DNA from: an uncultured Lachnospiraceae bacterium
GTDB taxonomy: Bacteria; Bacillota; Clostridia; Oscillospirales; CAG-272
Assembly (NCBI GenBank): GCA_964456045.1
Contig: CAYWAD010000002.1
Location: forward strand, 1 to 49,842
DNA length: 49,842 nt
Direction of reading: 5' to 3'
This document shows positions 1 through 37,509 of this stretch, piece after piece. Made by a program: the position numbers and the translations under genes. How positions within the stretch are numbered: position 1 is the first letter of the stretch; each line of letters begins with the position of its first letter. The notes beneath the pieces were generated by a model. That model made no database searches, was not told the DNA's origin, and saw only the letters and a program-made list of their open reading frames with translations.

Positions 1-319
1 GTTTTGTCTTCTTAGTCATAGATACGCGATAATCGCGGGGCTTCGGGCCGAGAGCCACACCGCCGTGAACCCACTGAGGAGCTCTGCGGGAACCCTGTCT
101 TGCGCGGCCGGTACCCTTCTGTCTCCAAGGCTTCTTACCGCCGCCGGAAACTTCGGTTCTTGTGAGAGTGGACTGTGTGCCCTGTCTCTGATTGAGCAAG
201 AACGCTCTTACTGCCGAATGGAGGACCGCGCCGTTAATGTCGGCTGCGAAGATCTTGTCAGATAATGTGATTTCACCGACAGTAGCGCCGGTCATATCTA
301 CCACTTTCATATTAGGCAT
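1..319 (-). CDS. rplD: 50S ribosomal protein L4, N-terminal part (gene runs off the left edge)
   Basis: My reverse translation from ATG at 319 gives [19 protein letters not shown]...[25 protein letters not shown], an L4 signature. GGAGGAG lies upstream. It directly follows rplC, which is S10-operon order. It is absent from the ORF track because it is truncated. Confidence 0.85.
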
Positions 320-336
320 TGTCTTCTCCTCCTAAC

Positions 337-966
337 TTACGCTTTTACGCTGTCGCGAATGAACACGATACCGCCCTTGGCACCGGGAACGGCACCCTTA
401 ACAGCGATAAGGTTCTTTTCAGCGTCAACTTTTACTACCGCAAGGTTCTGCACCGTAACCTGTTCGTTACCATACTGACCTGCCATTTTCTTATTCTTGA
501 AGATGTGAGCCGGATCGATAACACCCATAGAACCGGGCTGACGGTGGATAGGACCTGTACCGTGAGTCATACGGAGTGTTGCGAGACCCCATCTCTTAAC
601 CGCACCTGTATATCCGCGGCCCTTTGTAATTCCCGTTACATCGACCTTTTCGCCTGCGGCGAAGGTATCGGCGGAGATTACGGAACCAACTTCAACGGAG
701 CTGATGTCTTCGAGACGGAATTCTTTAAGATGGCGCTTAACGTTTACGCCTGCACGTTTGAAATGACCTGCTTCGGGCTTAGTAGCCTTGGACTCTTTTT
801 TGTCCATGAAGCCGAGCTGAACTGCTTCATAGCCATCTGTTTCCTTAGTCTTTTTCTGAACGACTGCGCAAGGGCCTGCTTCTATAACAGTTACAGGAAT
901 CATGTTGCCGTTTTCATCAAAGATCTGGGTCATTCCGAGCTTTTTGCCTATAATGGCCTTTTTCAT
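337..966 (-). CDS. rplC: 50S ribosomal protein L3
   Basis: 209-aa ORF MKKAIIGKKLGMTQIF...; L3-like throughout; lies between rpsJ and rplD. Confidence 0.97.
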   Translation of the reverse strand: MKKAIIGKKLGMTQIFDENGNMIPVTVIEAGPCAVVQKKTKETDGYEAVQLGFMDKKESKATKPEAGHFKRAGVNVKRHLKEFRLEDISSVEVGSVISADTFAAGEKVDVTGITKGRGYTGAVKRWGLATLRMTHGTGPIHRQPGSMGVIDPAHIFKNKKMAGQYGNEQVTVQNLAVVKVDAEKNLIAVKGAVPGAKGGIVFIRDSVKA

Positions 967-1120
967 GAGTTTGTTTCCTCCTGTTTTGGTTATTGGTCGA
1001 TGACGATGGTAGTTGCGGGAGCCATCCGCACGTCTGCGACTTGACCTAAACTCGAACCGTACGCTTCATTTAGTAAGCGTCGTCATTCGGATCGGGTGGC
1101 TGTTTTTGTTTGCCGAGCAA

Positions 1121-1432
1121 TTAAAGCTTTACTTCAATCTCTACTCCCGCAGGGAGCTCGATCTTCATCAACGCCTCAATCACCTTCTGTGACGGCTTCT
1201 TGATAACAACGAGTCTGCGATGTGTACGCTGCTCGAACTGCTCACGGCTGTCCTTGTACTTGTGAACTGCACGGAGAATCGTTACGATTTCTTTTTCAGT
1301 AGGGAGCGGAATAGGTCCGGATACTTCGGCGCCATTTGCTTTAGCCGCCTCAACAACCTTCACGCTTGCCGCGTCTACGAGAGTGTGATCATAACCCTTT
1401 ATGCGAACATTGATCTTATCGTTTGCTGCCAC
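1121..1432 (-). CDS. rpsJ: 30S ribosomal protein S10
   Basis: GTG at 1432 is preceded by AAGGAGG (1441-1447) with 8-nt spacing, giving a 103-aa protein (V)[15 protein letters not shown]...[12 protein letters not shown]. The track ORF 1121..1510 over-extends the N-terminus. Confidence 0.93.
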
Positions 1433-1692
1433 GTTTGCTGCCTCCTTAATATTACTACTAAAGTGGGGCAATGAACTGCACACGGCTCCGTGCGTCCATC
1501 GTTTGCTCAAAATTCAGTGCCGACCAACGTACCACAGGATCCGTTATGCCGGCAACAGAGTTCAAGCTCAGAATACGCACCGAAATCGGCACATTTCATT
1601 TGGCCCGCCCGACTCAAGGTCGGACATACTCCACGGAAATTTCCTGCTTCAAGAGCAGCCACCTTCCGCTTCTTCGCACACCAAGCTTTACT

Positions 1693-1721
1693 ATTTTATC
1701 ACAAGAATATTGTTTTGGCAA
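1693..1721 (-). promoter_or_regulatory. Candidate sigma-A promoter of the S10 operon (TTGCCA-17-TAAAAT, TG-extended)
   Basis: Read on the minus strand: TTGCCA (1721-1716), 17-nt spacer, TAAAAT (1698-1693). It would give a ~250-nt 5' UTR before rpsJ. Confidence 0.45.
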
Positions 1722-1814
1722 GTGTTTTTTTACCTTTTATTTGATTTTTTCAAAGAAACCGCAGTAAATTTTTGCACGAACTTTGCTTCGATTTTTTGTG
1801 CACATTGCACACAC

Positions 1815-1850
1815 AAAAAAGCTTCGCGATCAAATGACCGCGAAGCTTTT
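1815..1850 (-). terminator. Rho-independent terminator after the lipoprotein gene
   Basis: 12-bp stem 1817-1828 / 1839-1850 (AAAAGCTTCGCG) with a 10-nt loop. On the minus strand the stem runs into a T tract. Confidence 0.8.
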
Positions 1851-1865
1851 CCGAGTCTCGCTATA

Positions 1866-3293
1866 TTACTTAATGTAAGAATTGAGCAACTCGCCGTTTA
1901 CGCAACCGTAAATGGTATTGTTGATAACATAAATGGTTACGTGATACCATTCACCTACGGTGTAAGTATCGGAGATCTGAGTTGTATTGGAAAGTGTACC
2001 GTTTTCGCAGATCTGGAAGCAGGTAAGCGTGTTAGACCAACCGCCCTGGTTCCATCTTACATAGTTAGCGGCAGAAGGATCTTCCGCGTAGGAAACCGCG
2101 AAGTAAGGCATAAAGCCTTCAGCTCCGCTATCCTTGCGAGCATCAAATTCCATTACGTAGTTGTTCCAATCAGCATTAGCGATGGATTCGGTAAGAAGAA
2201 TTCCGCCGCCGGTGATGCTTGTGGATACGCACTGGAGAATTCCGCCGTGTTCGCCATCCTCATCTTCCGTCACCATCCAATCATCATGCCAGTCACCGTC
2301 GGAGGTTACATTTGCCCATGCACCGTCAGCCGCAACGTAGGATTCCCAATCGGAAAGATCTGTATCGGAGAAGTCATTTTCGTACATAACTTCACCTGTG
2401 AGGCAGCTCGTAACCTTGACATTGTCGATAGAGTAAGCTGTGCTCCAAGTACCGAATCCGATACCGCCGGTGTAAACTGCGGATTCATCAACCGTAGCAT
2501 AAACCTCGAAAAGCTGAGTACCTGCCACATAAAGAACGACTGTTTTAGCATTAAGAACGATACTTACGTTGACCCATTCGCCAACGGGAAGCACGTAGGA
2601 AAGGTCGATAGTATCAACGGAAGCCTTGCCGCCTTCAACATGAGTTACATTAACTTGGGAGTTTGTTCCGCCACCGAGGTTAACAACGTAATAGTTGTTT
2701 TCATCGGTGTAGCCGAAGTAGATCTGAGCGCCGCCGCAATCTTCGGAGAGCATGATCTTGGTTGTGAGCTGGATTCTGTTCCAGTCGGATCCGCCGAAAC
2801 GGAGAACACCGTCACCGGAGGTTGTAAGCGCCTTGTTAACCGGTTCGGTTTCTTCAGCTTCGGTTTCTTCATCGTCTTCAGCTTCTTCGGCTTCAGCTTC
2901 AACTTCTTCGGAAGGCTCATCTACAATAGACCAATCGGCAATATCGCCTACGATAGCCGTGAAATCGTCAAGGTTTGCGCCTTCGTCGTCAAATGTGTGT
3001 TCGAAAAGTGTGAGTTTGGTCTGGATGCCGACGCCCTTGACGTTGTCAAAGTAGATCTGACCGCCTGCGGAAGCGATTGCGAAATAGCCGCCGAAACTTG
3101 CGGTAGCATCGGGAACGTATTCTCTTTCGGTTGTACCTGAGTTGCCGCTGTCCGTGTTACCGGAATCACCCGAATCGGAAGCGTCCGCTGTATCCGGCGT
3201 GGGAACAGGAAGTTCCGGATCGTCCGAGCAGGATGCCAAGCAAAGCGGCACGAGCATACAAAGAGCAAGGATAATTGCTGTTATTTTTTTCAT
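1866..3293 (-). CDS. Lipoprotein with two ConA/LamG-like beta-sandwich modules separated by a poly-acidic linker
   Basis: 475 aa. Lipobox signal peptide MKKITAIILALCMLVPLCLASC; Asp/Ser/Gly-rich stalk; EEVEAEAEEAEDDEETEAEETE linker. The two halves share a W/Y-rich beta-rich pattern. The domain family is assigned by eye only. Confidence 0.7.
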   Translation of the reverse strand: MKKITAIILALCMLVPLCLASCSDDPELPVPTPDTADASDSGDSGNTDSGNSGTTEREYVPDATASFGGYFAIASAGGQIYFDNVKGVGIQTKLTLFEHTFDDEGANLDDFTAIVGDIADWSIVDEPSEEVEAEAEEAEDDEETEAEETEPVNKALTTSGDGVLRFGGSDWNRIQLTTKIMLSEDCGGAQIYFGYTDENNYYVVNLGGGTNSQVNVTHVEGGKASVDTIDLSYVLPVGEWVNVSIVLNAKTVVLYVAGTQLFEVYATVDESAVYTGGIGFGTWSTAYSIDNVKVTSCLTGEVMYENDFSDTDLSDWESYVAADGAWANVTSDGDWHDDWMVTEDEDGEHGGILQCVSTSITGGGILLTESIANADWNNYVMEFDARKDSGAEGFMPYFAVSYAEDPSAANYVRWNQGGWSNTLTCFQICENGTLSNTTQISDTYTVGEWYHVTIYVINNTIYGCVNGELLNSYIK

Positions 3294-3329
3294 ATTGTCC
3301 TCCTGACAAATATTTTTTTATCACAATTA

Positions 3330-3358
3330 ATTATAGCACGTCAAAATGACTTTGTCAA
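3330..3358 (-). promoter_or_regulatory. Consensus sigma-A promoter for the lipoprotein gene (TTGACA-17-TATAAT)
   Basis: Minus strand: TTGACA (3358-3353), 17-nt spacer, TATAAT (3335-3330), ~35 nt upstream of the ATG at 3293. Confidence 0.7.
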
Positions 3359-3396
3359 CACGTCCGAGATTCGTGTTTTTTAGTCATTTTCACTTT

Positions 3397-4920
3397 TTAC
3401 ACGTCAATTTCCGAAAGTGCGCGACAATCCGATTTGATTTTATCGTAAAGGCACGTGTAAATTTCATGCAGTGCGGCATATTTTCTCACGTTTTCCGAAT
3501 CGGGCTCACAGACACTTTTTGTTTTCACGGTTGCGTCGCACGCCTCGCGGACGTTTGAGTAAAGTCCTGCTCCGACGCCGGCAAGCAACGCAGCGCCGAG
3601 CGCGCCGCCCTCGTTCGAAGCCGCCGTTTTGATCCTGCAACCGAAAACATCGGCAAGCATCTGCCTCCAAAGCGGACTTGACGCACCTCCGCCGCACGCC
3701 ATTATCTCATCAACGCTTATCCCAGCCTCGCCGAAAAGCAAGAGACTGTCGCGGAGCGCAAACGTCACGCCCTCCATAACAGCGCGAAGCATATCGTGGC
3801 GCGTGTGAATCGACGTAAGACCGATAAACGCTCCTTTGGCGAACGGATCAAGATGCGGAGTGCGTTCGCCCATCAAATACGGCAAGTAAAGCAGTCTGTT
3901 AGAGCCGACGGGAACTTTCGAGGCGTACTCGTCCATCACTTTGTATACATCCACACCTCTCGCATCAGCTTCCGACTGCTCCGCCGAACAAAAGTTGTCT
4001 CTGAACCAGCGCAGCGACAGCCCTGCCGACTGAATCACACCCATAACGTGCCATTCTCCGGGCACAGCGGCGCAAAAGCTGTGTATGCGTCCTTTAGGAT
4101 CGTACACAACGGTAGGACTGTGAGCGAAAACAACACCGCTCGTTCCGATCGTGGCAAACGCGCGTCCGCCAGAAACCGTTCCGCATCCAACAGCGGAAGC
4201 GGCATTGTCACCCGCCCCACCGACAACGGGAATTCCGACAGGCAGTCCCGTTTCTTCGGAGCACAATCTTGACACAGTTCCCGTTATATCCTGCGATTCA
4301 ACGACTTTTCCGAGCATAGACACGTCAATTTGAAGTTTTTCGAGCACCTCATCCGACCAATCGCGCTTCGCTATGTCAAGCAGTTGCATTCCGGACGCAT
4401 CCGAAACGTCGGTGGCAATCTCGCCCGTCAGCTTATAGCGTATATAATCCTTCGGCAAAAGTATCGTTTTACATTTGTCGTAGATTTCAGGCTCGTTTTC
4501 GCGCACCCACAAAATTTTCGACGCCGTGAACCCCGTGAGCGCAGGCGACATCGTGATCTCCATCAGCCTTTTCGCGCCTACAAGCTCAGTTATCTCGTCG
4601 CACTGCTTTGATGTGCGTTGATCGCACCAGATAATACTTTTGCGAAGGACTTCCCCGTCGCCGTCAAGCATAACAAGTCCGTGCATCTGCCCCGAAAGTC
4701 CGATCGAAACAATTTCCGTTTTGTCCACCTCTGCCGTGACAGACGCAATTCCGCGGCACGCAGCATCCCACCAGTCGTTCGGGTTCTGCTCCGCCCAGCC
4801 CGCGTGAGGCTGATACAACGGATACTCAACCGTCTCTGACGCAATTTTGGTGCCGTCCTCACGGAAAAGCACGGTTTTAGTCCCGGACGTTCCTACATCT
4901 ATTCCAATAATGTATGCCAT
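3397..4920 (-). CDS. xylB: Xylulokinase (FGGY carbohydrate kinase)
   Basis: 507 aa; MAYIIGIDVGTSGTKTVLF... N-terminal FGGY motif, and GGGASSPLWRQMLADVFG near the C-terminus is typical of XylB. There is no xylA in the window. Confidence 0.85.
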   Translation of the reverse strand: MAYIIGIDVGTSGTKTVLFREDGTKIASETVEYPLYQPHAGWAEQNPNDWWDAACRGIASVTAEVDKTEIVSIGLSGQMHGLVMLDGDGEVLRKSIIWCDQRTSKQCDEITELVGAKRLMEITMSPALTGFTASKILWVRENEPEIYDKCKTILLPKDYIRYKLTGEIATDVSDASGMQLLDIAKRDWSDEVLEKLQIDVSMLGKVVESQDITGTVSRLCSEETGLPVGIPVVGGAGDNAASAVGCGTVSGGRAFATIGTSGVVFAHSPTVVYDPKGRIHSFCAAVPGEWHVMGVIQSAGLSLRWFRDNFCSAEQSEADARGVDVYKVMDEYASKVPVGSNRLLYLPYLMGERTPHLDPFAKGAFIGLTSIHTRHDMLRAVMEGVTFALRDSLLLFGEAGISVDEIMACGGGASSPLWRQMLADVFGCRIKTAASNEGGALGAALLAGVGAGLYSNVREACDATVKTKSVCEPDSENVRKYAALHEIYTCLYDKIKSDCRALSEIDV

Positions 4921-27147: not shown

Positions 27148-27570
27148 TCAGAACAGCTCCGTCTGATTTACCGTTTTCACGCCTGCGCCAGCCAAAGCGG
27201 CCGCCGCGACGACATTGTCGTCAACACGGAAAATCATATACGCGCCCGATTTTGCTGATATAAACGCGTACGTATATTCGACGGCAACTCCCGCCTCGGA
27301 AAGGACTTCGAGAACTGAGGCAAGGCTACCGGGCTTATCGTCAATGGAGACGGCAAGCACCTCCGTCACAGCCACGATATATCCACCGCTTTTCAGTTCC
27401 TTTTCGGCAGAAGCCGGATCATCGCAAATTACGCGAAGGATACCGAAATCCTGCGTATCCGCGATTGATAGCGCTTTCAAATTAATGTTTTTATCGGCGA
27501 TGTACCTTGTTGCTTCCGCAAGCTTTCCGGATTTATTTTCGATAAAAACGGATATTTGTTTTAAGCTCAT
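27148..27570 (-). CDS. ACT-domain (amino-acid-binding) protein
   Basis: 140 aa with two tandem ACT-like halves (ISVFIENKSGKLAEATRYIADKNINL.. and VLAVSIDDKPGSLASVLEVLSEAGVAV). Confidence 0.8.
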   Translation of the reverse strand: MSLKQISVFIENKSGKLAEATRYIADKNINLKALSIADTQDFGILRVICDDPASAEKELKSGGYIVAVTEVLAVSIDDKPGSLASVLEVLSEAGVAVEYTYAFISAKSGAYMIFRVDDNVVAAAALAGAGVKTVNQTELF

Positions 27571-27588
27571 ATTCGCATCTCCTTTCGG

Positions 27589-28896
27589 TTAATCGTGAAG
27601 CTTTCTCTTGTCTACGACGCGAACAGCCTTACCTTCGCTTCGCTGTATCGTTTTCGGCGCGACAAGATGCACCTTCGGATTGATTCCGAGCATCGTTTTG
27701 ATCGCATCGGCAAGATCGCGCTCTTTTTGCGCGAGATATTTTACGGTATCGGAGAACTGCTCCGGCGAAAGCTCAACATAAATATCAAGCGTATCCGTAT
27801 TTTTCACGCGGTCGACCTCGATCAGATAGTTTGAAGAATATCCTTCCTTGAAAAGCACGGTTTCTATTTGCGACGGGAAGACGTTAACTCCGCGGATTAT
27901 AAGCATATCATCGCTTCTGCCCATCGGCTTGGACATTTTTACGAGAGTGCGTCCGCAGGAGCATTTTTCGCGTGTGAGGACGCATATATCGCGTGTGCGG
28001 TAGCGCAACAGCGGAAATGCTTCTTTATCAAGGCTTGTGAAAACCAGCTCGCCTTTTGAGCCTTCCGGCAGAACCTCGCCGGTTTCGGGATCTATTATCT
28101 CGGCGAGAAAATGGTCCTCGTTTATGTGCATTCCCTCCTGAGATTCGCATTCGAACGCAACGCCGGGGCCGGAAGTTTCCGTCAAGCCGTAAATATCGTA
28201 TGCTTTTATTCCGAGAGATTTTTCTATATCGCGGCGCATTTCCTCGGTCCAAGGTTCGGCGCCGAAAATACCTGCTTTAAGGTCAAGATCGTCCGACGTG
28301 AGTCCCATTTCCTTGATCGCTTCGCCTATGTACGCCGCATACGACGGGGTGCAGCAAAGGATCGTCGCGTGAAGGTCGCGCATAAACTGGATTTGGCGCT
28401 CCGTATTGCCCGACGACATCGGAAGCGTCAAACAGCCGACTTTATGCGATCCGCCGTTGAGTCCGGGGCCGCCGGTGAAAAGCCCGTAGCCGTATGCGAT
28501 TTGGCAAACATCCTCGTTTGAGCCGCCTGCGGCAACTATCGCACGCGCGCAACACTCCTCCCAAAGGTCAACGTCCTTTTGCGTATAAAACGCAACGACA
28601 CGTCTGCCCGTTGTTCCGCTTGTGGATTGTATACGAACGCAGTTTTTCAAATCCGTTCCCAAAAGTCCGTACGGATATGCATCTCGCAGATCCGCTTTCG
28701 TCAAAAACGGGAGCTTATGAAGGTCGTCCACGGACTTAATATCGTCGCACGAAACGCCTTTTGCGTCCATAAGCTTGCGGTAATATTCGACATTTTCATA
28801 TACATGCTTCACTTGCTTTACGAGCTTTTCGTTTTGGATAGCTCGCATTTCCTCGCGTGAGGCACATTCAATCTCAGACTGATAATATTTTGGCAT
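27589..28896 (-). CDS. paaK: Phenylacetate-CoA ligase
   Basis: 435 aa; AMP-binding motif STSGTTGRRVV; PaaK-like throughout (..YGLTETSGPGVAFEC..). Confidence 0.88.
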   Translation of the reverse strand: MPKYYQSEIECASREEMRAIQNEKLVKQVKHVYENVEYYRKLMDAKGVSCDDIKSVDDLHKLPFLTKADLRDAYPYGLLGTDLKNCVRIQSTSGTTGRRVVAFYTQKDVDLWEECCARAIVAAGGSNEDVCQIAYGYGLFTGGPGLNGGSHKVGCLTLPMSSGNTERQIQFMRDLHATILCCTPSYAAYIGEAIKEMGLTSDDLDLKAGIFGAEPWTEEMRRDIEKSLGIKAYDIYGLTETSGPGVAFECESQEGMHINEDHFLAEIIDPETGEVLPEGSKGELVFTSLDKEAFPLLRYRTRDICVLTREKCSCGRTLVKMSKPMGRSDDMLIIRGVNVFPSQIETVLFKEGYSSNYLIEVDRVKNTDTLDIYVELSPEQFSDTVKYLAQKERDLADAIKTMLGINPKVHLVAPKTIQRSEGKAVRVVDKRKLHD

Positions 28897-28977
28897 AAAA
28901 TCTCCGTTTGCGGCACGAAATTCGAAGTTTAATTTGCCGGTTTCGCTCCGTCACTTTTTTAAGGGGGTTATATTAAA

Positions 28978-29007
28978 ATAATACACCCAAAAAAAGAACG
29001 TTGTCAA
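28978..29007 (-). promoter_or_regulatory. Candidate promoter for paaK (TTGACA-18-TATTAT)
   Basis: Minus strand: TTGACA (29007-29002), 18-nt spacer, TATTAT (28983-28978). Confidence 0.4.
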
Positions 29008-29065
29008 CATATTTTTTCATATGAACGAATAATTATGCAAACTGCAAAAAAATTTCCGCGAAGTC

Positions 29066-29094
29066 TTGACAAGGTGCATTTACGCTGATATAAT
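29066..29094 (+). promoter_or_regulatory. Consensus sigma-A promoter of the aro supraoperon (TTGACA-17-TATAAT)
   Basis: TTGACA at 29066-29071, 17-nt spacer, TATAAT at 29089-29094, 250 nt upstream of the first structural gene. Confidence 0.75.
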
Positions 29095-29132
29095 CATAAA
29101 TAAATTATTAACATCGAAAAGATGAAATCAAT

Positions 29133-29201
29133 ATGATGAGCCGAGTTTTTGCAAACGAATATTATTACTTTTACTTTTTCTTTATCAAAAAAGATAGGTA
29201 A
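29133..29201 (+). CDS. Candidate Tyr/Phe-rich leader peptide (22 aa) of the aro operon attenuator
   Basis: ATG ATG AGC ... TAA translates to MMSRVFANEYYYFYFFFIKKDR*, with 8 consecutive Tyr/Phe codons at 29160-29183. It lies between the promoter and an intrinsic terminator. The SD is weak (GAAAAG ~12 nt upstream). Confidence 0.55.
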   Translation: MMSRVFANEYYYFYFFFIKKDR

Positions 29202-29259
29202 GAGTAAATTCTGTTGCACAAAAATAAATTCGGAAGAATGGAAATTTCAGATTCAACCT

Positions 29260-29300
29260 ACGGATTTTGCAGAAAGAATTTACTGCAAAGTCCGTTTTTT
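29260..29300 (+). terminator. Leader (attenuator) terminator upstream of DAHP synthase
   Basis: 13-bp stem ACGGATTTTGCAG / CTGCAAAGTCCGT (29260-29272 / 29283-29295, one G-U pair) with a 10-nt loop and T6 at 29295-29300. It ends 44 nt before the ATG at 29344. Confidence 0.7.
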
Positions 29301-29343
29301 CATCTTATGCATAAAATCATCCAACCCGAAAGGATTTATTAAA

Positions 29344-30351
29344 ATGATAGTAGTTCTCAAACAAAACAGCGACAAGCTTCAAATCGAAAATTTGATCGAA
29401 TGGTTAAAGGAACAAAACCTGGACATACACATTTCCGAGGGTAAAAATCAGACGGTACTCGGTCTTGTCGGTGACACGACAAGAGTTGACGGCGAGCTTA
29501 TCGAATCGCTCGAAATCGTTGACAGCGTAAAGCGCGTGAGCGAGCCGTTCAAGAGTGCGAACCGCAAATTTCATCCGGACGACACGATTGTAAACGTAGA
29601 TAACATCAAGATCGGCGGCGGCAATTTCGCAATTATTGCAGGTCCTTGCTCGGTTGAAAGCGAGGCGCAAATTCTCGAAGTTGCGACAAAGGTAAAGGAA
29701 GCGGGCGCACTTCTGCTTCGCGGCGGTGCATTCAAGCCGAGGACTTCGCCGTACGATTTCCAGGGACTTCGCGCTGAGGGAATTGATCTTTTGATCAAGG
29801 CGAAAAAAGCGACAGGTATGCCCATTGTAACCGAAATTATGGACGCAAAATACCTTCCCTTATTCGAGGACGTTGACGTTATTCAAGTCGGCGCGAGAAA
29901 CGCGCAAAACTTCGAGCTTCTCAAGGAACTCGGAAAGATCCGCAAGCCGATCCTTCTCAAGCGCGGCACTGCCGGCACCTTGAAAGAGCTTTTGATGAGC
30001 GCGGAATACATCATGGCAGGCGGAAACGAAAACGTCATTCTTTGCGAGCGCGGCATCCGTACATACGAATCCTACACGAGAAACACGCTTGACCTTTCCG
30101 CAGTCCCGGTACTCAAGGAGCTTTCTCACCTTCCCGTTATCGTTGACCCCAGTCACGCTTGCGGAATTTCACGTCTTGTCAAGCCTATGGCAATGGCTGC
30201 CGCCGCTGCCGGCGCAGACGGTCTTATGATCGAGGTTCACAACGATCCCAAGCGCGCGCTTTGCGACGGCGCACAATCGCTCACCCCCGAAGAATTCGCG
30301 GACGTTGCTGCTCGCGTTAACGAAATCAGACAAGTAATCGCTGCAAATTAA
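29344..30351 (+). CDS. aroF: 3-deoxy-7-phosphoheptulonate (DAHP) synthase, type I-beta with N-terminal ferredoxin-like regulatory domain
   Basis: ATG 29344 (MIVVLKQNSDKLQIENL...) after GAAAGGA. Catalytic-core motifs GPCSVES and KPRTSPYDFQG. The ~65-aa N-terminal extension resembles the Thermotoga-type regulatory domain. The track ORF 29149.. over-extends. Confidence 0.88.
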   Translation: MIVVLKQNSDKLQIENLIEWLKEQNLDIHISEGKNQTVLGLVGDTTRVDGELIESLEIVDSVKRVSEPFKSANRKFHPDDTIVNVDNIKIGGGNFAIIAGPCSVESEAQILEVATKVKEAGALLLRGGAFKPRTSPYDFQGLRAEGIDLLIKAKKATGMPIVTEIMDAKYLPLFEDVDVIQVGARNAQNFELLKELGKIRKPILLKRGTAGTLKELLMSAEYIMAGGNENVILCERGIRTYESYTRNTLDLSAVPVLKELSHLPVIVDPSHACGISRLVKPMAMAAAAAGADGLMIEVHNDPKRALCDGAQSLTPEEFADVAARVNEIRQVIAAN

Positions 30352-30371
30352 AGCATTGAAAGGAAGCTCTA

Positions 30372-31235
30372 ATGAACATCGGAATAGTTGGCTTGGGACT
30401 TATCGGCGGTTCATTTGCAAAGGCGCTCACGGCAAGTAAAAAGCACTCCGTTTACGCGTACGACATTGACAAAACGATATTGAATTACGCTATAATGACG
30501 GGTGACGTTGCGCAAAAGCTGACGGATGAAAATCTCTCGTCCTGCGAAATGATAATCGTTTCACTTTACCCGACGGCGACGCTTGATTACCTAAAAAAGA
30601 ACTCTCATTTGATCCGCAAGGGTACGATCGTAATCGACACTGCCGGAACAAAGCGAAGCATTACCTTATCCGCGTTTGAGCTTGCGGAGCGCCACGGCTT
30701 CACGTTTGTCGGCGGTCATCCCATGGCAGGAACGCAATTTTCCGGCTTTAAGCACGCAAGAGCGACACTTTTCAACAATGCCGTTATGGTTGTCACACCC
30801 CAAAAAAACGAGGATCTTCACATTCTGGACAAAGTTAAGTCCGTAATGCTCGATTGCGGTTTTGCCAAGTTAAATGTTACAACGCCTGAGACGCACGACG
30901 AGCTTATCGCGTACACGTCTCAACTTGCGCACGTTGTTTCGAACGCATACGTTAAAAGTCCGTCCGCTCTGCGGCACAAAAATTTCTCCGCCGGCAGCTA
31001 CCGCGATCTTACGCGCGTTGCTCGTTTGAACGAGGACATGTGGACGGATCTCTTCCTTGACAATCGCGACAATCTAATCGGTGAGCTAGACACAATCATA
31101 GAAAACCTGCAAAAATACCGCGATGCGCTCGACAAAAGCGACGCGGACGAATTAAAATCGCTCCTGCGCGAAGGCAGGGTCATAAAGGAAAGGACTCTGT
31201 ATGGTGAAAAAGATCAAAATAAAGACCTCTCATAA
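30372..31235 (+). CDS. tyrA: Prephenate dehydrogenase
   Basis: 287 aa; Rossmann motif IGIVGLGLIGGSFAKAL; GGHPMAG motif. Confidence 0.88.
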   Translation: MNIGIVGLGLIGGSFAKALTASKKHSVYAYDIDKTILNYAIMTGDVAQKLTDENLSSCEMIIVSLYPTATLDYLKKNSHLIRKGTIVIDTAGTKRSITLSAFELAERHGFTFVGGHPMAGTQFSGFKHARATLFNNAVMVVTPQKNEDLHILDKVKSVMLDCGFAKLNVTTPETHDELIAYTSQLAHVVSNAYVKSPSALRHKNFSAGSYRDLTRVARLNEDMWTDLFLDNRDNLIGELDTIIENLQKYRDALDKSDADELKSLLREGRVIKERTLYGEKDQNKDLS

Positions 31236-32253
31236 TTATGACGTTCTTGTCGGTTCGGGGGCTGCCTCGATGATCGGTGCGGAAATCTCCTCGCTCAGTT
31301 CTGCCTCACGCATTCTGACCGTGACAGACGACAATGTTGCGCCTTTGTATGCGGACACGTTCACAGCTCGTTTGCCCGAAGCAACGGAAAAGCATATTTT
31401 TACGCTTCAGCACGGCGAAGAACACAAGTCCATCGAAACCGTTATATCCATCATCGCATATTTGAAAGAACACGGCTTTGACCGAAACGATCTTATCATC
31501 GCGCTCGGCGGCGGCGTCACAGGTGACATGGCGGCATTCGCCGCTTCGATCTACATGCGCGGAATTGATTTTATCAACGTGCCGACGACACTTTTATCGC
31601 AGGTGGATTCCTCAGTCGGAGGCAAAACGGGCGTTGATTTTTCCGGTGCGAAGAACATCATCGGCACATTTTATCAGCCGATTGCGGTCATATGTGATAC
31701 GGACTATCTAAAAACTCTCCCCGATGACATTTTCGCGGACGGCTGTGCCGAAGTCATAAAATACGCGTTTATAAACGACCCCGATTTGCTCGGACTTATC
31801 GACGACGGCATCAAAAAGAACATCGACGAAATCGTTGCGCGCTGTATCTCGAACAAAAACGACATTGTATCGCGCGACGAATTTGACCGCGGCGAGCGTG
31901 CGCTTTTGAATTTCGGGCACACTGTCGGTCATGCGATTGAAAGCCTGAGCGAATATAAAATCAGTCACGGCAAGGCTGTCGCGATAGGCATGTCCATTAT
32001 ATCGAGCGCGTGCGAGACGGCAGGAATCTGCGAGAACGGCGTTTTCGAAAGGCTTAAATCCGTTTTGACGGCAAATTCACTTCCGACAAAGGCGGATTTT
32101 TCCGCGGAAGATCTGACCTGTGCAATCAAAAACGACAAAAAGAAAAGCGGAGACGAAATTTCCGTAATCGTTCCCGTCTCGCTTTCTAAAACGCAAATCA
32201 AAAAAGTAAGTTTTGACGAGCTTTACTCGCTTATAAAAGGAGTTATCCTATGA
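31201..32253 (+). CDS. aroB: 3-dehydroquinate synthase
   Basis: 350 aa; GGGVTGDMAAFAAS and the HTVGHAIE metal-site motif; SD AAGGAAAGGA upstream; overlaps the tyrA 3' end by 35 nt. Confidence 0.88.
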   Translation: MVKKIKIKTSHNYDVLVGSGAASMIGAEISSLSSASRILTVTDDNVAPLYADTFTARLPEATEKHIFTLQHGEEHKSIETVISIIAYLKEHGFDRNDLIIALGGGVTGDMAAFAASIYMRGIDFINVPTTLLSQVDSSVGGKTGVDFSGAKNIIGTFYQPIAVICDTDYLKTLPDDIFADGCAEVIKYAFINDPDLLGLIDDGIKKNIDEIVARCISNKNDIVSRDEFDRGERALLNFGHTVGHAIESLSEYKISHGKAVAIGMSIISSACETAGICENGVFERLKSVLTANSLPTKADFSAEDLTCAIKNDKKKSGDEISVIVPVSLSKTQIKKVSFDELYSLIKGVIL

Positions 32254-33515
32254 CTGTAACGGTTTATCCGTCGCGGCTGACGGGCACTGTGTCCGCGATA
32301 GCATCAAAGTCTGTCCTGCACAGGCTTCTTATCTGCTCCGCCCTCTCGGACGGAAAAACGCGCATCGACAACGTTACGCTGTCCAAGGATATTTACGCGA
32401 CGATGAGCGCGGCGGAGGGGATGGGAAAGGCGGTTACGTTTGAAAACGGCTCGCTTTTTGTGACGGATGGGGTAAAAACTTCGGAAATAAACGTCAACGA
32501 AAGCGGCTCGACATTCCGTTTTATTCTTCCGATCGCGGCGGTGACTGCGCGAAACGAGGCTTTGACGATACAAGGCTCGGAGTATCTTGCATCACGTCCG
32601 ATTTCTCCGCTTTACGAGGAGCTTACCGCACACGGAGCGAAACTTTCGAAAAAGGGCAAATTTCCGATGCGCGTCGGCGGCGAGCTTTTGTCCGGCGATT
32701 ATTCCCTTCCCGGAAACATATCGAGCCAATTTATTTCCGGTTTGCTTTTTGCGCTTCCGCTTTGCGACGGCGACAGCAGAATACGAATCACGGGCAAGCT
32801 TGAATCGAAGCCCTACATCGACATAACGTTGGAATGTCTCAAGGCGTTCGGCATCACAATTGAAGCGGTCGAGGACGGTTATTACATTCAAGGCGGTCAA
32901 AAATACGTCTCTCCCGGCATCATCACCTGCGAGGGTGACTGCTCCAATGCCGCGTTTTTTCTTGCGGCAGGCGCATTTTCCGAGGATTTCGTCGGCGTTC
33001 GCGGCATCAACCGCAAAACCGCGCAGGGAGACTTCGCCGCAGTTGAAATTCTTAAAAACTTCGGCGCCGAAGCGCACGAATCGAACGACTGTATTGAGTT
33101 TCGTCGTGCGGAACTGCGCGCTCGCGATATTGACGCTACCGACATCCCGGATCTGATCCCGATACTTTCGCTTGTTGCGTCCGTTTCCGTCGGCACGACC
33201 ACGGTATACGGCGCGCGCCGTCTGCGTTTGAAGGAAAGTGACCGTCTTTTTTCTGTGACGGATGTGCTTTCTTCGCTCGGCGCGGACATAAAAGAAACCG
33301 ACGACGGGCTGATAATTTCCGGTGTCGGAAGACTTCACGGCGGGAGAGTCTCCTCGCACAACGATCACAGAATCGCCATGACTGCCGCGATTGCTTCCCT
33401 CGTGTCGGACGGAGAAATAATCATCGACGGCTTTGAGGCGATAGACAAATCATATCCGGATTTCATCCGCGACTTCACCGCGCTCGGCGGAAGGATTGAA
33501 GTCACACACGATTAA
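32250..33515 (+). CDS. aroA: 3-phosphoshikimate 1-carboxyvinyltransferase (EPSP synthase)
   Basis: 421 aa; EPSPS-like throughout (..LKESDR.., ..DHRIAMTAAIASL..); ATGA overlap with aroB. Confidence 0.92.
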   Translation: MTVTVYPSRLTGTVSAIASKSVLHRLLICSALSDGKTRIDNVTLSKDIYATMSAAEGMGKAVTFENGSLFVTDGVKTSEINVNESGSTFRFILPIAAVTARNEALTIQGSEYLASRPISPLYEELTAHGAKLSKKGKFPMRVGGELLSGDYSLPGNISSQFISGLLFALPLCDGDSRIRITGKLESKPYIDITLECLKAFGITIEAVEDGYYIQGGQKYVSPGIITCEGDCSNAAFFLAAGAFSEDFVGVRGINRKTAQGDFAAVEILKNFGAEAHESNDCIEFRRAELRARDIDATDIPDLIPILSLVASVSVGTTTVYGARRLRLKESDRLFSVTDVLSSLGADIKETDDGLIISGVGRLHGGRVSSHNDHRIAMTAAIASLVSDGEIIIDGFEAIDKSYPDFIRDFTALGGRIEVTHD

Positions 33516-33538
33516 ATTCACTTATAACGGAGAAATAA

Positions 33539-34612
33539 ATGTCAATTTTCAACGGAAAAAAACTCAGCGTAGCTTTATTCGGTCAGTCTCATTCGGAGGC
33601 GATCGGCGTTACGATAGACGGCTTGCCTGCCGGGATCCCGATCGACGAAGCCGCAATTACCGCGTTTATGAAGCGACGTGCGCCCTCCGCATCCGCATTT
33701 TCCACGGCAAGATCTGAGCCGGACATTCCCTCATTTGTCAGTGGAATTATGAACGGCGTCACGACGGGAACCGCGCTGACGGCAATAATTTACAACAAAG
33801 ATCAACGCAGTCGCGACTACTCCGCGCTTGTGAGCACGCCGCGTCCCGGTCACGCGGACTACCCCGCAAAAGTAAAACACGGCGGCGCTGAGGACTTTCG
33901 CGGAGGAGGTGCGTTTTCCGGCAGGATGACGGCTCCGCTTTGCGTCGCAGGTGCGATTGCAAACGAATATCTGCGTTCGTTAGGCATTACCACGGGTTCG
34001 CACATTTTCTCAATCGGAAACATACGCGACGAAGTTTTCGATCCCGTTCTTGTCTCAAAGGACGAGCTTGACTCGGTAACTTCAAAGGCGTTTTCGGTCA
34101 TTGACGAGCGGAAAGGCGAGGAAATGCTTGATTTTATCGCGCACACGAGAGCGAACAAGGATTCCGTTGGCGGAATTATCGAATGTGCCGCGGTAGGTGT
34201 GCCTGTCGGACTCGGAGGCGAACTTTTCGACGGAATCGAATCAAAGCTTGCACGTCTTGTTTTTTCGGTACCGGCTGTCAAGGGATTTGAAATCGGCTCC
34301 GGATTTGAGTCCGCAAAGTCACACGGAAGCGATAACAACGACGAATTTTACTTTGACGGAGACAATGTGAAAACTCGCACGAACAATGCCGGAGGCATTC
34401 TCGGAGGAATTTCCAGCGGTATGCCGATCATATTCAGAGTCGCGATAAAACCTACTCCGTCGATTGCGAAACCGCAAAGGACCGTCGATCTTTCGTCCCG
34501 TACAAACACGGAAATTACGATTGGCGGAAGACACGACGCTTGCATTGTACCGCGTGCACTGCCCGTCATTGAATCTTGCTTAACTCTCGCCGTTTTAGAC
34601 GAAATTTTATAA
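33539..34612 (+). CDS. aroC: Chorismate synthase
   Basis: 357 aa; FGQSHSEAIGVTIDGLPAG and GGRHDACIVPRA motifs. Confidence 0.92.
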   Translation: MSIFNGKKLSVALFGQSHSEAIGVTIDGLPAGIPIDEAAITAFMKRRAPSASAFSTARSEPDIPSFVSGIMNGVTTGTALTAIIYNKDQRSRDYSALVSTPRPGHADYPAKVKHGGAEDFRGGGAFSGRMTAPLCVAGAIANEYLRSLGITTGSHIFSIGNIRDEVFDPVLVSKDELDSVTSKAFSVIDERKGEEMLDFIAHTRANKDSVGGIIECAAVGVPVGLGGELFDGIESKLARLVFSVPAVKGFEIGSGFESAKSHGSDNNDEFYFDGDNVKTRTNNAGGILGGISSGMPIIFRVAIKPTPSIAKPQRTVDLSSRTNTEITIGGRHDACIVPRALPVIESCLTLAVLDEIL

Positions 34613-34629
34613 ATATCGGAGAAATTATC

Positions 34630-35772
34630 ATGAGCATGGAAAATTACAGAAACGAAATAAACCGCATTGACGAAGAACTCGTTCGCCTTTTCATCGAGCG
34701 CATGGAAACAGTTAAAAAAATCGGTCAGTACAAAAAGGAAAACAATCTGCCCGTACGCGATCCCATGCGTGAGCGCAAGATGCTTGAAGCGATTGCGGAA
34801 ACTGCCGGTCCCGAATACGAAAACAGCCTCAGTCAGCTTTATTCTATGATCCTCGAAATTTCGCGCGCGCAGCAGACGAAGATCGTCTCAGCGCCTTCAA
34901 AGTTGACCGAGATGATGGAAAACGCCGTAAAGGACACGGCGCAGCTCTTTCCCGAAAAAGCGACCGTTGCCTGCCAAGGAACGGACGGTGCATATTCGCA
35001 GGCTGCCGCAGAAAAGATGTTCAAACATCCGTCCATAATGTTCCTTTCGTCGTTTGACAAGGTTTTTGCCGCAGTTGACAAGGGGCTTTGCCGCTTCGGA
35101 ATCCTTCCGCTTGAAAATTCAACCGCCGGCTCCGTTAATCAGATTTACGATCTGATGGTCAAGTACAATTTTTCCATCGTCAGAACCGCGCGCATCCAGG
35201 TTTCGCACACTTTGCTTGCAAACCGCGGCACGAAGCTTTCGGAAATCAAAGAAATTTACTCCCACGAACAGGCGATCGCGCAATGCAGCGAATTTCTCTG
35301 CTCACTTTCCGGCGTGAACATCATTCCCTGCGAAAACACTGCCGTTGCGGCAGCCAAGGTTGCGGCTTCCGGCAGAACGGATGTTGCCGCGATCTCGTCC
35401 AAGGAATGCGCGGAGCTGTACGGTCTTTCCGTAGTCGCAGACAGAATTGCAAATGAAAAGGACAACTACACGCGCTTCATCTGCATCTCAAAAAAGCTTG
35501 AAATTTATCCCGGTGCGGACAAAACGAGCATCATGATGATCCTTCCGCACAAGTCCGGCTCGCTTTACAAAGTGCTTTCGCGTCTGAATGTACTCGGTAT
35601 CAATCTGAACAAGCTTGAAAGCCGTCCCATTCCCGATCGCAATTTTGAATTTATGTTCTATTTTGACATAGACGAATCCATTTACTCACCTGCCCTCAAG
35701 GAGCTCCTCGGTGAGCTTGAACGTGAGGCGCAGGAATTCCGTTATCTCGGAAGCTATTCCGAAATCGTTTAA
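34630..35772 (+). CDS. pheA: Bifunctional chorismate mutase / prephenate dehydratase (P-protein) with C-terminal ACT domain
   Basis: ATG 34630 after GGAGA. CM domain RNEINRIDEELVRLFIERM; PDT VACQGTDGAYS; ACT TSIMMILPHKSGSLYKVLSRLNVLGINLNKLESRP. Confidence 0.9.
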   Translation: MSMENYRNEINRIDEELVRLFIERMETVKKIGQYKKENNLPVRDPMRERKMLEAIAETAGPEYENSLSQLYSMILEISRAQQTKIVSAPSKLTEMMENAVKDTAQLFPEKATVACQGTDGAYSQAAAEKMFKHPSIMFLSSFDKVFAAVDKGLCRFGILPLENSTAGSVNQIYDLMVKYNFSIVRTARIQVSHTLLANRGTKLSEIKEIYSHEQAIAQCSEFLCSLSGVNIIPCENTAVAAAKVAASGRTDVAAISSKECAELYGLSVVADRIANEKDNYTRFICISKKLEIYPGADKTSIMMILPHKSGSLYKVLSRLNVLGINLNKLESRPIPDRNFEFMFYFDIDESIYSPALKELLGELEREAQEFRYLGSYSEIV

Positions 35773-35784
35773 GGAGACACTCAC

Positions 35785-37014
35785 ATGAAATGCGGTCTGC
35801 TCGGCAAAAAGCTCGGTCACAGCTATTCTCCCGAAATTCACCGTCACCTTGCCGACTACGAGTACACGCTTATGGAGCGCGAACCGGACGAGCTTGACGA
35901 TTTTTTCGTTCGATGTGATTTTGACGCAATAAACGTGACAATTCCGTACAAGGAAGCGGTCATCAAATACTGTACCGACATTGACGAAAAGGCGAAAAAG
36001 ATCGGCTCGGTCAACACGATCGTCAAAAAAGACGGCAAGCTGTACGGCTACAACACGGATTATTTCGGATTCAATCTTATGCTCGAACGCTTGACTGATG
36101 TCAACGGCAAAAAAGTCCTCGTTTTGGGAAGCGGCGGCTCGTCAAAAACGGTATGCGCCGTTGTCCGTGATCTCGGCGGTGAGCCTGTTATCATCTCGCG
36201 CACGGGCGAAAACAATTACGAAAACATCAGCCGTCACTATGCCGATACGGACGTTATCGTTAACACAACGCCTGTCGGAATGTATCCGAACAATCTTATC
36301 GCCCCGATTGAGCTTGACAAATTTACCTCTGTTTCGGCAGTGCTGGACATAATTTTCAATCCGTCGAAAACGAAGCTGCTACTCGACGCGGAAAGGCTTG
36401 GAATACCGTTTTCCAACGGCTTACTTATGCTCGTCGCACAGGCAAAACGCGCCTCCGAGCTTTTCAGAGACGTCTCCGTTCCGGATTCGGCAATTGACGA
36501 AATTCTTCGCTCGATACAGCGCGAGGTTTTGAACATAGTCATCGTAGGTATGCCCGGTTGCGGAAAATCCGTCGTCGGCAAAAAGATTGCAAAGCTGCTC
36601 GGCAGAGAGTTTGCGGACGTGGACAAGCACATTACAAAATCCGTCGGCATACCTCCGAAGCAGATCATCGAAAATGAGGGAGAATCCGAGTTCAGGCGAA
36701 TCGAAACGGAAGCGCTCAAAGAGCTTTGCAAGCGTTCCTCACTCGTCATCGCAACGGGCGGCGGCGCTGTTACGGTAAAGGAAAATTTCGACGTCATTCG
36801 TCAAAATGCGGTTGTGATTTATTTGAAGCGCGACCTTTCCCTTTTGTCAACCAAAGGCAGACCTTTGTCCGCCGGAGGAGACAAGGCGTTGGCGCATCTT
36901 TTTGAAAATCGCAAGGACGCATACGCGAAAATCGCGGATTTTGAACTTGAAAGTACAGGCATGATTTCAAAAACGGCGGAAAATGCTTGCAGAATTTTCC
37001 GCAACTGCATATAA
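35785..37014 (+). CDS. aroE: Fused shikimate dehydrogenase (AroE) / shikimate kinase (AroK)
   Basis: 409 aa; the N-terminal ~250 aa are AroE-like (GHSYSPEIH.., VLGSGGSSK). The C-terminal ~165 aa carry the AroK P-loop IVGMPGCGKSVVGKKIA and GGGAV. Confidence 0.88.
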   Translation: MKCGLLGKKLGHSYSPEIHRHLADYEYTLMEREPDELDDFFVRCDFDAINVTIPYKEAVIKYCTDIDEKAKKIGSVNTIVKKDGKLYGYNTDYFGFNLMLERLTDVNGKKVLVLGSGGSSKTVCAVVRDLGGEPVIISRTGENNYENISRHYADTDVIVNTTPVGMYPNNLIAPIELDKFTSVSAVLDIIFNPSKTKLLLDAERLGIPFSNGLLMLVAQAKRASELFRDVSVPDSAIDEILRSIQREVLNIVIVGMPGCGKSVVGKKIAKLLGREFADVDKHITKSVGIPPKQIIENEGESEFRRIETEALKELCKRSSLVIATGGGAVTVKENFDVIRQNAVVIYLKRDLSLLSTKGRPLSAGGDKALAHLFENRKDAYAKIADFELESTGMISKTAENACRIFRNCI

Positions 37015-37065
37015 TGCGGTTTACTTAGAATCAAAGCTGAAAATTCAGCAATTACAGGAGTTTTT

Positions 37066-37509
37066 ATGAACAACATCGGCAAAAATGTACTGGTCATCAA
37101 CGGGCCGAACTTGAATTTGCTCGGACTGCGCGAGCCTGAAATATATGGGAACAAAAACTATTCCGCATTACTCGATTTTATTAAGGCATCTGCCGAAGAT
37201 ATCGGTTTTGAAGTCGATTTTTTTCAATCCAACCACGAAGGCGCGATAATTGACTCGATCCAAGCAGCGTACGGGAAATATGCCGCGATCGTCATCAATC
37301 CCGCGGCGTACACGCACACGAGCGTTGCCATCTTGGACGCGCTGAAGGCAGTCGCGATACCGACTGTCGAAGTTCACCTTTCCGACGTAAATGAGCGCGA
37401 GGAATTCCGTCGTTTTTCGTACGTCTCGCTCGTTGCGAAAAAGACGATCTGCGGAAAGGGCTTCGATGGCTACCGTGAGGCACTTCTGTTCCTTAAAGAA
37501 ATTTTGTGA
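37066..37509 (+). CDS. aroQ: Type II 3-dehydroquinate dehydratase
   Basis: 147 aa; VLVINGPNLNLLGLREPEIYG..QSNHEG..NPAAYTHTSVA. Confidence 0.93.
   Translation: MNNIGKNVLVINGPNLNLLGLREPEIYGNKNYSALLDFIKASAEDIGFEVDFFQSNHEGAIIDSIQAAYGKYAAIVINPAAYTHTSVAILDALKAVAIPTVEVHLSDVNEREEFRRFSYVSLVAKKTICGKGFDGYREALLFLKEIL

Follow-up and report, generated by a model that had tools for sequence, protein, structure and literature searches.

A probable ribosome-mediated attenuator with a Tyr/Phe-codon leader peptide upstream of the aromatic amino acid operon in Clostridia

The stretch of DNA analysed here, referred to as the window, comprises 49,842 nucleotides of contig CAYWAD010000002.1 from an uncultured Lachnospiraceae bacterium, and carries an operon for the synthesis of phenylalanine and tyrosine which begins with the gene of 3-deoxy-D-arabino-heptulosonate 7-phosphate (DAHP) synthase, aroF. 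The leader preceding this gene is in all probability (roughly 0.85 in our estimate) a classical four-region ribosome-mediated transcription attenuator of the Phe+Tyr (aro) operon. It contains a short open reading frame (ORF) with a run of Tyr and Phe codons, an intrinsic terminator and three mutually exclusive helices, designated 1:2, 2:3 and 3:4 after the regions that pair, which are supported by covariation, by the energies of cognate versus swapped duplexes and by the geometry of the ribosome footprint. A first-pass annotation, made from the sequence alone, had proposed a mechanism of the pheL/hisL type for this site; in agreement with it, we found the in-frame ORF, the terminator and the alternative helices conserved in about 100 related loci.

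A conserved leader upstream of DAHP synthase

All of the sequence features listed in the first-pass annotation were recovered at the positions given there (Table 1). The leader ORF, its eight aromatic codons and the absence of Trp were confirmed by translation, and the promoter is of perfect consensus; from its position, transcription is predicted to start near 29101. According to Pfam, the operon does hold both tyrA and pheA, the latter composed of chorismate mutase, prephenate dehydratase and ACT domains, and trp genes are absent among the operon genes. Short or overlapping gene junctions suggest that these genes are co-transcribed. The available ORF list runs the DAHP synthase gene upstream to a TTG at 29149, an extension across the leader that had been called spurious. 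The FXD (ferredoxin-like) domain of Pfam and the homologue alignments both begin at residue 1 of the protein started at ATG 29344, which places the gene, with its N-terminal ferredoxin-like domain, at 29344-30351, and leaves 43 nt between the end of the terminator U6 and the start codon.

Table 1. Leader elements and operon in the window (all on the plus strand)
Feature	Position (strand)	Description
Promoter, sigma-70 type	29066..29094 (+)	-35 TTGACA 29066-29071, 17-nt spacer with extended TG, -10 TATAAT 29089-29094; 12/12 consensus matches
Leader ORF MMSRVFANEYYYFYFFFIKKDR	29133..29201 (+)	22 codons, stop TAA 29199-29201, no Trp
Control codons	29160..29183 (+)	Eight successive Tyr/Phe codons, TAT TAT TAC TTT TAC TTT TTC TTT
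Region 1	29141..29183 (+)	5' strand of 1:2 (anti-antiterminator); segments 29141-48, 29150-54, 29157-60, 29165-76, 29179-83; includes the Tyr/Phe codons
Region 2	29190..29233 (+)	3' strand of 1:2 (29190-94, 29196-29207, 29208-11, 29214-18, 29226-33); includes the leader stop codon
Region 3	29261..29284 (+)	3' strand of the antiterminator; terminator 5' arm, loop and first 2 nt of the 3' arm
Intrinsic terminator (attenuator)	29260..29300 (+)	13-bp stem 29260-29272 / 29283-29295, 10-nt loop, U6 29295-29300
Regulated operon	29344..37509 (+)	DAHP synthase (aroF), tyrA, aroB, aroA, aroC, pheA, aroE/aroK fusion, aroQ (Pfam)

A genome scan with the DAHP synthase of the window yielded 80 species-representative loci, whose DAHP synthases are 66-78% identical to that of the window and which bear Clostridia-type labels, except two probable mis-binnings. 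In 66 of these 80 loci an ATG ORF with at least 5/8 Tyr/Phe starts 130-290 nt upstream of DAHP synthase and is followed by an intrinsic terminator; among the other 14, L071 and L079 are too short to judge. The hairpins of the 66 loci and the window have a median energy of -19.3 kcal/mol, and the distance from hairpin to DAHP synthase start was 14-146 nt in the loci examined. Conservation of the aromatic run and of the helices in relatives had been named beforehand as a check on the proposal; the run is thus kept in 66/80 loci, and the helices show the compensatory changes described below.

The leader peptides vary from 14 to 42 amino acids, with variable N- and C-terminal flanks, as illustrated by MLCKTNATAYSFFYFYFYFNEK, MKHTSFATAYYFYFYFNRKK and MSSAAQFYFYYYYFFTQKK. 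Across the 67 leaders, window included, the Tyr/Phe run extends over 6-10 codons (median 8), and 460 of the 530 codons within runs (87%) are TTT, TTC, TAT or TAC, that is 216 Phe and 244 Tyr. Phe makes up 19% of all leader residues, Tyr 16% and Trp 0.1%. Judged from these sequences, the property that is kept is the Tyr/Phe run, not the sequence of the peptide, and what look like peptide motifs, FAAEY and FCC, result from reading the RNA segments GCAGC and GCUGC as codons. The consensus of 34 leaders (MAFFT alignment A1) consists of a Shine-Dalgarno sequence (SD), ATG, 4-12 codons, UUUGCAGC, UAY/UUY codons and a variable loop, followed by AAAGUAAnAGyGAUUUnUGCUGCA, a variable linker, GCnCGCAGUG, a loop, CACUGCGnGC and a U-run.

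The weakness of the SD of the leader ORF, already noted in the first-pass annotation, is a trait of the window copy, which has an SD-like AAGAUGA at 29119-29125 without GGAG; GGAG or GAGG is found at -18 to -4 of the ATG in 45 of the 67 leaders. In a covariance-model alignment with 60 related leaders, the ORF of the window nevertheless falls in register with their ATG and SD columns. It has a further in-frame ATG at 29136, and its start is overlapped, as AUGAUG, by a mini-ORF of four codons (AUG AAA UCA AUA UGA, 29122-29136, plus strand). Given the weak SD, this mini-ORF might aid initiation in the window copy via termination-reinitiation.

It had also been cautioned that T-rich DNA yields Phe and Tyr codons easily, a reservation that did not hold when the background was counted. 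The leader is the sole ATG ORF of 8-70 amino acids with at least 7/8 Tyr/Phe on both strands of the window. In the relatives, the 400-nt zones upstream of DAHP synthase (31 kb) contain 57 ATG ORFs with at least 6/8 Tyr/Phe, 34 of them with at least 7/8, versus 3 and 0, respectively, in the remaining 962,610 nt (both strands counted, about 30 times more sequence). This amounts to a several hundred-fold enrichment upstream of DAHP synthase.

A covariance model, R1, was built from the leader alignment, the seeds of which had first been chosen by their Tyr/Phe ORF. It has a single match in the window (29118-29299, 101.5 bits) and 60 matches in the 80 loci, each directly upstream of the DAHP synthase match. 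These 60 belong to the 66 loci with ORF and terminator. A weak further match (L016:980-1156) coincides in part with the end of an ABC ATPase gene and was rejected as spurious, and the minus-strand matches in L003, L006 and L031, which are marginal, were taken as spurious as well. Metagenome contigs were then sampled with an exact DNA-pattern scan that used only part of region 1 and the region 2 motif. All of the 39 loci so recovered were matched by R1. More than 140 nt of DNA follows the leader in 35 of them, and in 34 of these 35 a DAHP synthase starts 79-195 nt further on, in most cases with tyrA behind it. In all, about 100 loci fit the model.

Not every DAHP synthase locus carries this leader. 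Eight of the 80 (L004, L036, L040, L042, L057, L069, L070 and L080) have no Tyr/Phe ORF in the 400 nt upstream of DAHP synthase and no R1 match within 3 kb, and gave no T-box or other Rfam element either. Five others (L020, L046, L061, L065 and L067, one of them labelled Faecalibacterium) have GC-richer leaders upstream of DAHP synthase, with strong terminators and no R1 match, in which the runs consist almost only of Tyr, e.g. MSSSRFGYYYYYVLCSLCRA and MARYAYYYVLYGKCRA. These may form a separate, Tyr-specific subfamily.

Alternative helices and their co-evolution

The 13-bp hairpin with its U-tract, as first described, was present in every fold of the full leader of the window, with -17.9 kcal/mol for the isolated hairpin. 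A simple consensus terminator scan of 28800-29500 gave no match, because the 10-nt loop exceeds the 8-nt loop limit of that scan. The first-pass annotation had overlooked the 1:2 helix, of which the Tyr/Phe codons are the 5' strand and which pairs them with the stop-codon region; the hairpin of the window, 29141-29233, reaches -25.3 kcal/mol. The conserved motif of region 2 is GUAAnAGyGAUUUnUGCUGC, in the window GUAAGAGUAAAUUCUGUUGC, and the same region serves alternatively as the 5' strand of the antiterminator (segments 29203-12, 29214-18 and 29226-32).

As to the antiterminator itself, a pairing of 29209-29225 with 29264-29274 had been suggested. Such a pairing exists; however, it is not the best available and misses the strongest helix, of 9-10 bp. 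The better partners are 29203-29232 and 29261-29284, and constrained folding gave the pairs 29203-29212:29275-29284, 29214-29218:29268-29272 and 29226-29232:29261-29267, with -18.7 kcal/mol for the isolated structure (29203-29284) and a duplex energy of -20.3 kcal/mol.

Folding of the leader with a masking ribosome, another check named at the outset, gave states which switch from terminator to antiterminator in line with the attenuator model. If the ribosome sits on the Tyr/Phe codons and the RNA ends at 29284, so that the terminator has no 3' arm yet, the minimum-energy fold is the antiterminator. With the stop codon occupied instead, the strongest antiterminator helix (29203-29212:29275-29284) cannot form; weaker pairings of 29214-29232 with the terminator 5' arm persist in the nascent RNA, and in the full-length transcript the terminator forms. 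The footprint geometry of the family was examined with a model in which the ribosome occupies the bases from -15 to +14 relative to the A-site codon. Of the region 2 bases used in 2:3, 76% on average are hidden once the ribosome stands at the stop codon or has translated through, versus 1% when it is stalled in the middle of the run. The stop codon lies within GUAAnAG in many members, which fits the same footprint logic.

Covariation was measured on two alignments. On the unfitted MAFFT alignment (34 leaders), the two helices of 1:2 together with 3:4 have 84% of their cells paired, with a covariation score of 0.444 versus 0.218 in shuffles (0/500) and 34-50% pairing in slid controls. The R1 model alignment of 61 sequences gave 85.7% of cells paired and two-sided changes in 24 of 30 pairs; over both alignments covariation was 0.44-0.49 versus 0.21-0.22 in shuffles (0/500), and slid controls were 31-50% paired. 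The terminator stem of the family has two-sided compensatory changes in 12/12 pairs and 92% of cells paired. For the two 1:2 helices the corresponding values are 8/12 and 4/6 pairs, and 83% and 79%, the 8/12 helix being the one that opposes the Tyr/Phe codons to the stop-codon region. In this helix, columns 75:115 of alignment A3, where column 75 is position 2 of a Phe/Tyr codon, hold UA 22 times, UG 17, AU 11 and CG once. Phe-Tyr swaps (UUU to UAU) are therefore compensated in region 2, and the near absence of C or G at column 75, which would give Ser or Cys codons, is what a joint constraint of coding and pairing predicts.

The 2:3 pairing was assessed without reliance on the alignment. In 66/67 loci, 1:2 and 2:3 draw on one and the same part of region 2, and the region 2-region 3 duplexes are more stable than dinucleotide shuffles (median z = -2.4). 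In a swap test, the partner of each locus was compared with partners taken from other loci: for 2:3, cognate duplexes reached -17.6 kcal/mol versus -12.5 for swapped ones (z = -13.7, 0/5000 permutations). The test gave z = -13.8 for 1:2 and -28 for 3:4, and about -1.4 for the control combinations 1:3 and 2:4. The 2:3 effect is confined to the conserved 24-nt motif (-15.6 vs -10.3 kcal/mol, z = -14.6; linker, z = +2.1).

Proposed mechanism and competing explanations

We propose that transcription would begin at about 29101 and that a ribosome would start on the 22-codon leader. When charged tRNA-Tyr and tRNA-Phe are plentiful, the ribosome would clear the eight codons and reach the stop at 29199 or, in relatives with longer ORFs, translate on through region 2. 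In either case its footprint would hide the 5' part of region 2, region 3 would be free to pair with region 4 into the 13-bp hairpin with U6, and RNA polymerase would terminate at about 29300, ahead of aroF. When either charged tRNA is scarce, the ribosome would stall within 29160-29183, which would hold region 1 open and expose region 2 (29203-29232). Region 2 would then engage region 3 (29261-29284) while the terminator still lacks its 3' arm, so that no terminator forms and the operon is read through. Without any translation, 1:2 and 3:4 would form and transcription would terminate.

Several points weigh against this interpretation. Leader translation, stalling on the Tyr/Phe codons and termination at 29300 are steps that we infer from the anatomy and its conservation, from the way in which the three helices have co-evolved and from the geometry of the footprint; the physiological response and the relative weight of Tyr and Phe in it are likewise predictions. 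The SD of the window copy is weak, as said above. The argument from the in-frame ATG is partly circular, the seeds of the model having been picked by their Tyr/Phe ORF, a circularity which is mitigated by the background ORF count and by the metagenome scan based on DNA only. At full-length equilibrium with region 1 masked, the terminator state is the lower one (-34.6 vs -26.5 kcal/mol), which means that the switch has to work kinetically, as it does in trpL. In the column-wise test, the 6-bp 2:3 core GCUGC:GCAG has no covariation beyond conservation, 326 of 500 shuffles reaching the observed pairing. The core is complementary (70% paired, slid controls 13-55%) and an anchored ungapped 2:3 diagonal of 11 positions is 68% paired versus 62% in shuffles (0/500), so that the support for 2:3 comes from the swap tests and from this diagonal. 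RNAalifold alone, on the MAFFT and the model alignments, returned the terminator only as consensus, not the 1:2 helix, and with masking it yielded no antiterminator in the consensus, which is why we turned to explicit counts of pairs, to duplex z-scores for each locus and to swap tests. Finally, transcription and translation are asynchronous in B. subtilis (PMC8586808). A similar asynchrony would disfavour attenuation, unless polymerase pausing synchronises the two processes in Clostridia.

Other explanations have to be set beside ribosome-mediated attenuation. The leader might act on translation or on RNA stability, through an upstream ORF (uORF) coupled to aroF translation, through Rho or through an RNase, or the small hydrophobic peptide might have a function of its own. 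Some Firmicutes leader ORFs work by translational attenuation of the erm type (PMC8274638) and leader peptides are able to act in trans (PMC7298713), but the conservation of hairpin and U-tract with full covariation, at a short distance from the DAHP synthase start, is poorly accounted for in this way. Furthermore, none of the window folds pairs the SD of aroF (29328-29334) with the leader, and the peptides, variable in length and unconserved in their flanks, share motifs which are RNA segments. We consider such a mode of action very improbable.

We judge it very improbable that the site is a conserved structured RNA which binds a protein, a tRNA or a small molecule (T-box, TRAP-like or riboswitch), with the ORF as by-product of a UACUUU-rich stem. 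The Tyr/Phe codons do form one strand of a conserved covarying helix, and RNA structure alone therefore constrains part of that sequence; T-boxes, moreover, have been reported for tyrosine and most aminoacyl-tRNA synthetase genes in Firmicutes (PMC1262725, PMC2494555). A cmscan of 28900-29450 with Rfam 15 at E up to 10 nevertheless returned chance-level matches to snoRNA, miRNA and sRNA families, and no T-box, Phe_leader, riboswitch or other leader family. At the gathering threshold, neither the window nor 14 related loci yielded a T-box, a riboswitch or an amino-acid leader family, in line with the first-pass annotation, which had seen no T-box motif. The coding pattern also speaks against a structural by-product: 66/80 loci have an ATG in frame ahead of the run, in most cases together with GGAG or GAGG, the length and order of the run vary and yet its composition stays Tyr/Phe, the variable codon position 2 is U or A and almost never C or G whereas the terminator pairs sample all pair types, and the placement of the stop codon follows region 2. 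In addition, no conserved unpaired loop or bulge resembles a ligand pocket, loops and linker varying freely.

That the Tyr/Phe ORF of the window arose by chance in T-rich intergenic DNA beside an ordinary hairpin, control residing elsewhere (e.g. in feedback inhibition of DAHP synthase only), is scarcely credible: in its favour are the AT-richness of the region (29% G+C), the weak SD of the window copy and an F/Y-rich minus-strand ORF (29010..28951) that does seem to be accidental, but the leader is alone of its kind in the window, its fold departs from shuffles by z = -6.1, such ORFs are strongly enriched upstream of DAHP synthase in 80 genomes, about 100 loci fit one covariance model, and the related loci, with their divergent DAHP synthases and differing leader peptides, are not assembly duplicates.

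Known systems, neighbouring genes and meaning

The novelty suggested in the first-pass annotation was too strong, since precedents exist in aroR (PMC11802643), in the proposed uORFC-13-1 (PMC8632094) and in attenuators of Bacilli (PMC2965389, PMC4191407). The Clostridia Tyr/Phe leaders make up a new, large and well-supported family, but the type of regulator to which they belong is a known one. A full-text literature search did not find the element described in Clostridia, its coverage being incomplete and the result no proof of absence.

As in E. coli pheL-pheA, and also trpL and hisL, a short ORF rich in end-product codons and four alternately complementary regions lie, with a terminator, before the first biosynthetic gene, and in pheL the position of the ribosome picks antiterminator or terminator (PMC3082878, PMC11802643), as we propose here. 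Unlike pheL, to which there is no sequence or model similarity (cmscan, E up to 10), the Clostridia runs mix Tyr and Phe about equally, the operon begins with DAHP synthase and holds both tyrA and pheA, and the host is a Clostridia-class Firmicute, not a gamma-proteobacterium.

The aroR leader of C. glutamicum is similar in that a Phe/Tyr leader peptide precedes a DAHP synthase (aroF) operon under ribosome-mediated transcription attenuation. In the summary of Neshat et al. (2014) given in PMC11802643, this attenuation has experimental support, and the Phe-Tyr-Phe triplet of aroR is reported to respond to Phe, not to Tyr. Compared by description only, aroR differs in its actinobacterial host and in having a triplet versus a run of 6-10 codons.

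Brewer et al. (2021, PMC8632094) describe the candidate uORFC-13-1 from Acholeplasma and from environmental sequences of unassigned origin, and only in front of aroF. It resembles the present leader by its promoter, ribosome-binding site, start codon, U-rich Phe codons, terminator just downstream and further conserved helix (PMC8632094). In contrast, and again by description only, it is based on 24 sequences with 'at least one phenylalanine', for which no Tyr/Phe run or antiterminator model is given (PMC8632094). From this comparison, some of its environmental members could belong to the Clostridia family.

Within Firmicutes, ribosome-mediated transcription attenuation is shared with the His leaders of Bacillus hisS paralogues and hisZ (PMC2965389) and with B. 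subtilis bmrB-bmrCD (PMC4191407). These differ in dealing with other amino acids or antibiotic sensing and with other genes, are without sequence relationship to the Tyr/Phe leaders, and concern neither Clostridia nor aromatic biosynthesis.

The comparison with T-boxes is one of position and outcome, a choice between terminator and antiterminator that reports tRNA charging at the same regulatory site. A T-box senses uncharged tRNA directly, whereas in the proposed model the sensor would be the translating ribosome. T-boxes are the usual control of aromatic biosynthesis operons in Firmicutes.

Around the leader, the window holds some further features of interest. The aroE/aroK fusion of the operon is a single ORF of 409 amino acids (35785-37014, plus strand), with the shikimate dehydrogenase N-terminal domain at residues 5-79 and shikimate kinase at 257-394. 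Divergently, on the minus strand (27148-28896), lies an operon of a paaK-like AMP-forming aryl-CoA ligase (435 amino acids) followed by a protein with a pair of ACT domains (140 amino acids). It has a 447-bp intergenic region in common with the aro leader, and the two probably have back-to-back promoters there. In this region the minus-strand ORF MLTTFFFWVYYFNITPLKK (29010..28951; 6/8 F/Y plus Trp), which faces the paaK-like gene, was considered as a further leader and rejected: it overlaps the -35/-10 hexamers of the predicted paaK promoter, the region has no structure signal (z = 0.02), and the ORF has probably arisen by chance from the T-rich DNA of the promoter. The sole Rfam match of the whole window at the gathering threshold is an S10-Clostridia ribosomal-protein leader (RF03136, 39.7 bits, 1605-1682, minus strand), which fits a Clostridia origin.

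One metagenome locus, L085, is the exception to the link with DAHP synthase. It carries a complete leader, MSILVFAAAYYYFYFIYSVSKSDFCCN (3314-3469, minus strand; R1 115 bits), with its own promoter, SD and terminator, which precedes, on the same strand, a paaK-like aryl-CoA ligase and an iorA-like indolepyruvate:ferredoxin oxidoreductase (3109..1787 and 1790..45). Another promoter, TTGACA/TACAAT, is found between terminator and ligase. Together with the paaK-like ligase that neighbours the aro operon divergently in the window, this leader hints at a functional link between paaK-like/ior and aro operons, possibly the formation of aromatic amino acids from arylacetates. Operons of the L085 type could be an alternative route from arylacetates to aromatic amino acids.

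Carriers of the leader bear labels which include Oscillospiraceae, Acutalibacteraceae, Ruminococcus, Lachnospiraceae and Anaerovoracaceae. Among them are cultured organisms, namely Sporobacter termitidis DSM 10068 (L062), Angelakisella massiliensis (L044) and Hominicoprocola fusiformis (L005). The element would annotate an otherwise empty 5' region before the aromatic operon in many Clostridia genomes, mostly metagenome-assembled genomes from gut, rumen and bioreactors, and the seed alignment and R1, with about 100 members, are usable for the annotation of leader ORFs and against an upstream over-extension of aroF such as that in the window. Since Tyr and Phe codons alternate in the run, the common pathway and both terminal branches should be de-repressed whenever one of the two amino acids runs short. 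The N-terminal domain of the window enzyme, ferredoxin-like/ACT-type as in the Thermotoga-type DAHP synthase, presumably confers allosteric control, which attenuation would complement.

The family adds a leader-peptide attenuator to a phylum thought to be dominated by T-boxes, riboswitches and protein-mediated attenuation. Such an attenuator needs a ribosome that keeps pace with the polymerase, or a polymerase that pauses, and the family is therefore a natural and testable reporter of coupling in Clostridia. Its main interest lies there, as a widespread ribosome-dependent attenuator in a class of Firmicutes, where control of this sort is regarded as unusual and the coordination of transcription and translation is an open question (PMC8586808 for B. 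subtilis). We hold it to be an even bet that, throughout the Clostridia of gut and rumen, transcription of the shikimate/aro operon is controlled mainly by a large, uncatalogued family of attenuators that sense both Tyr and Phe, which would imply a close coupling of ribosome and polymerase in contrast to the asynchrony reported for B. subtilis, and that its leader has at least once come to stand before an aryl-CoA ligase/indolepyruvate:ferredoxin oxidoreductase operon.

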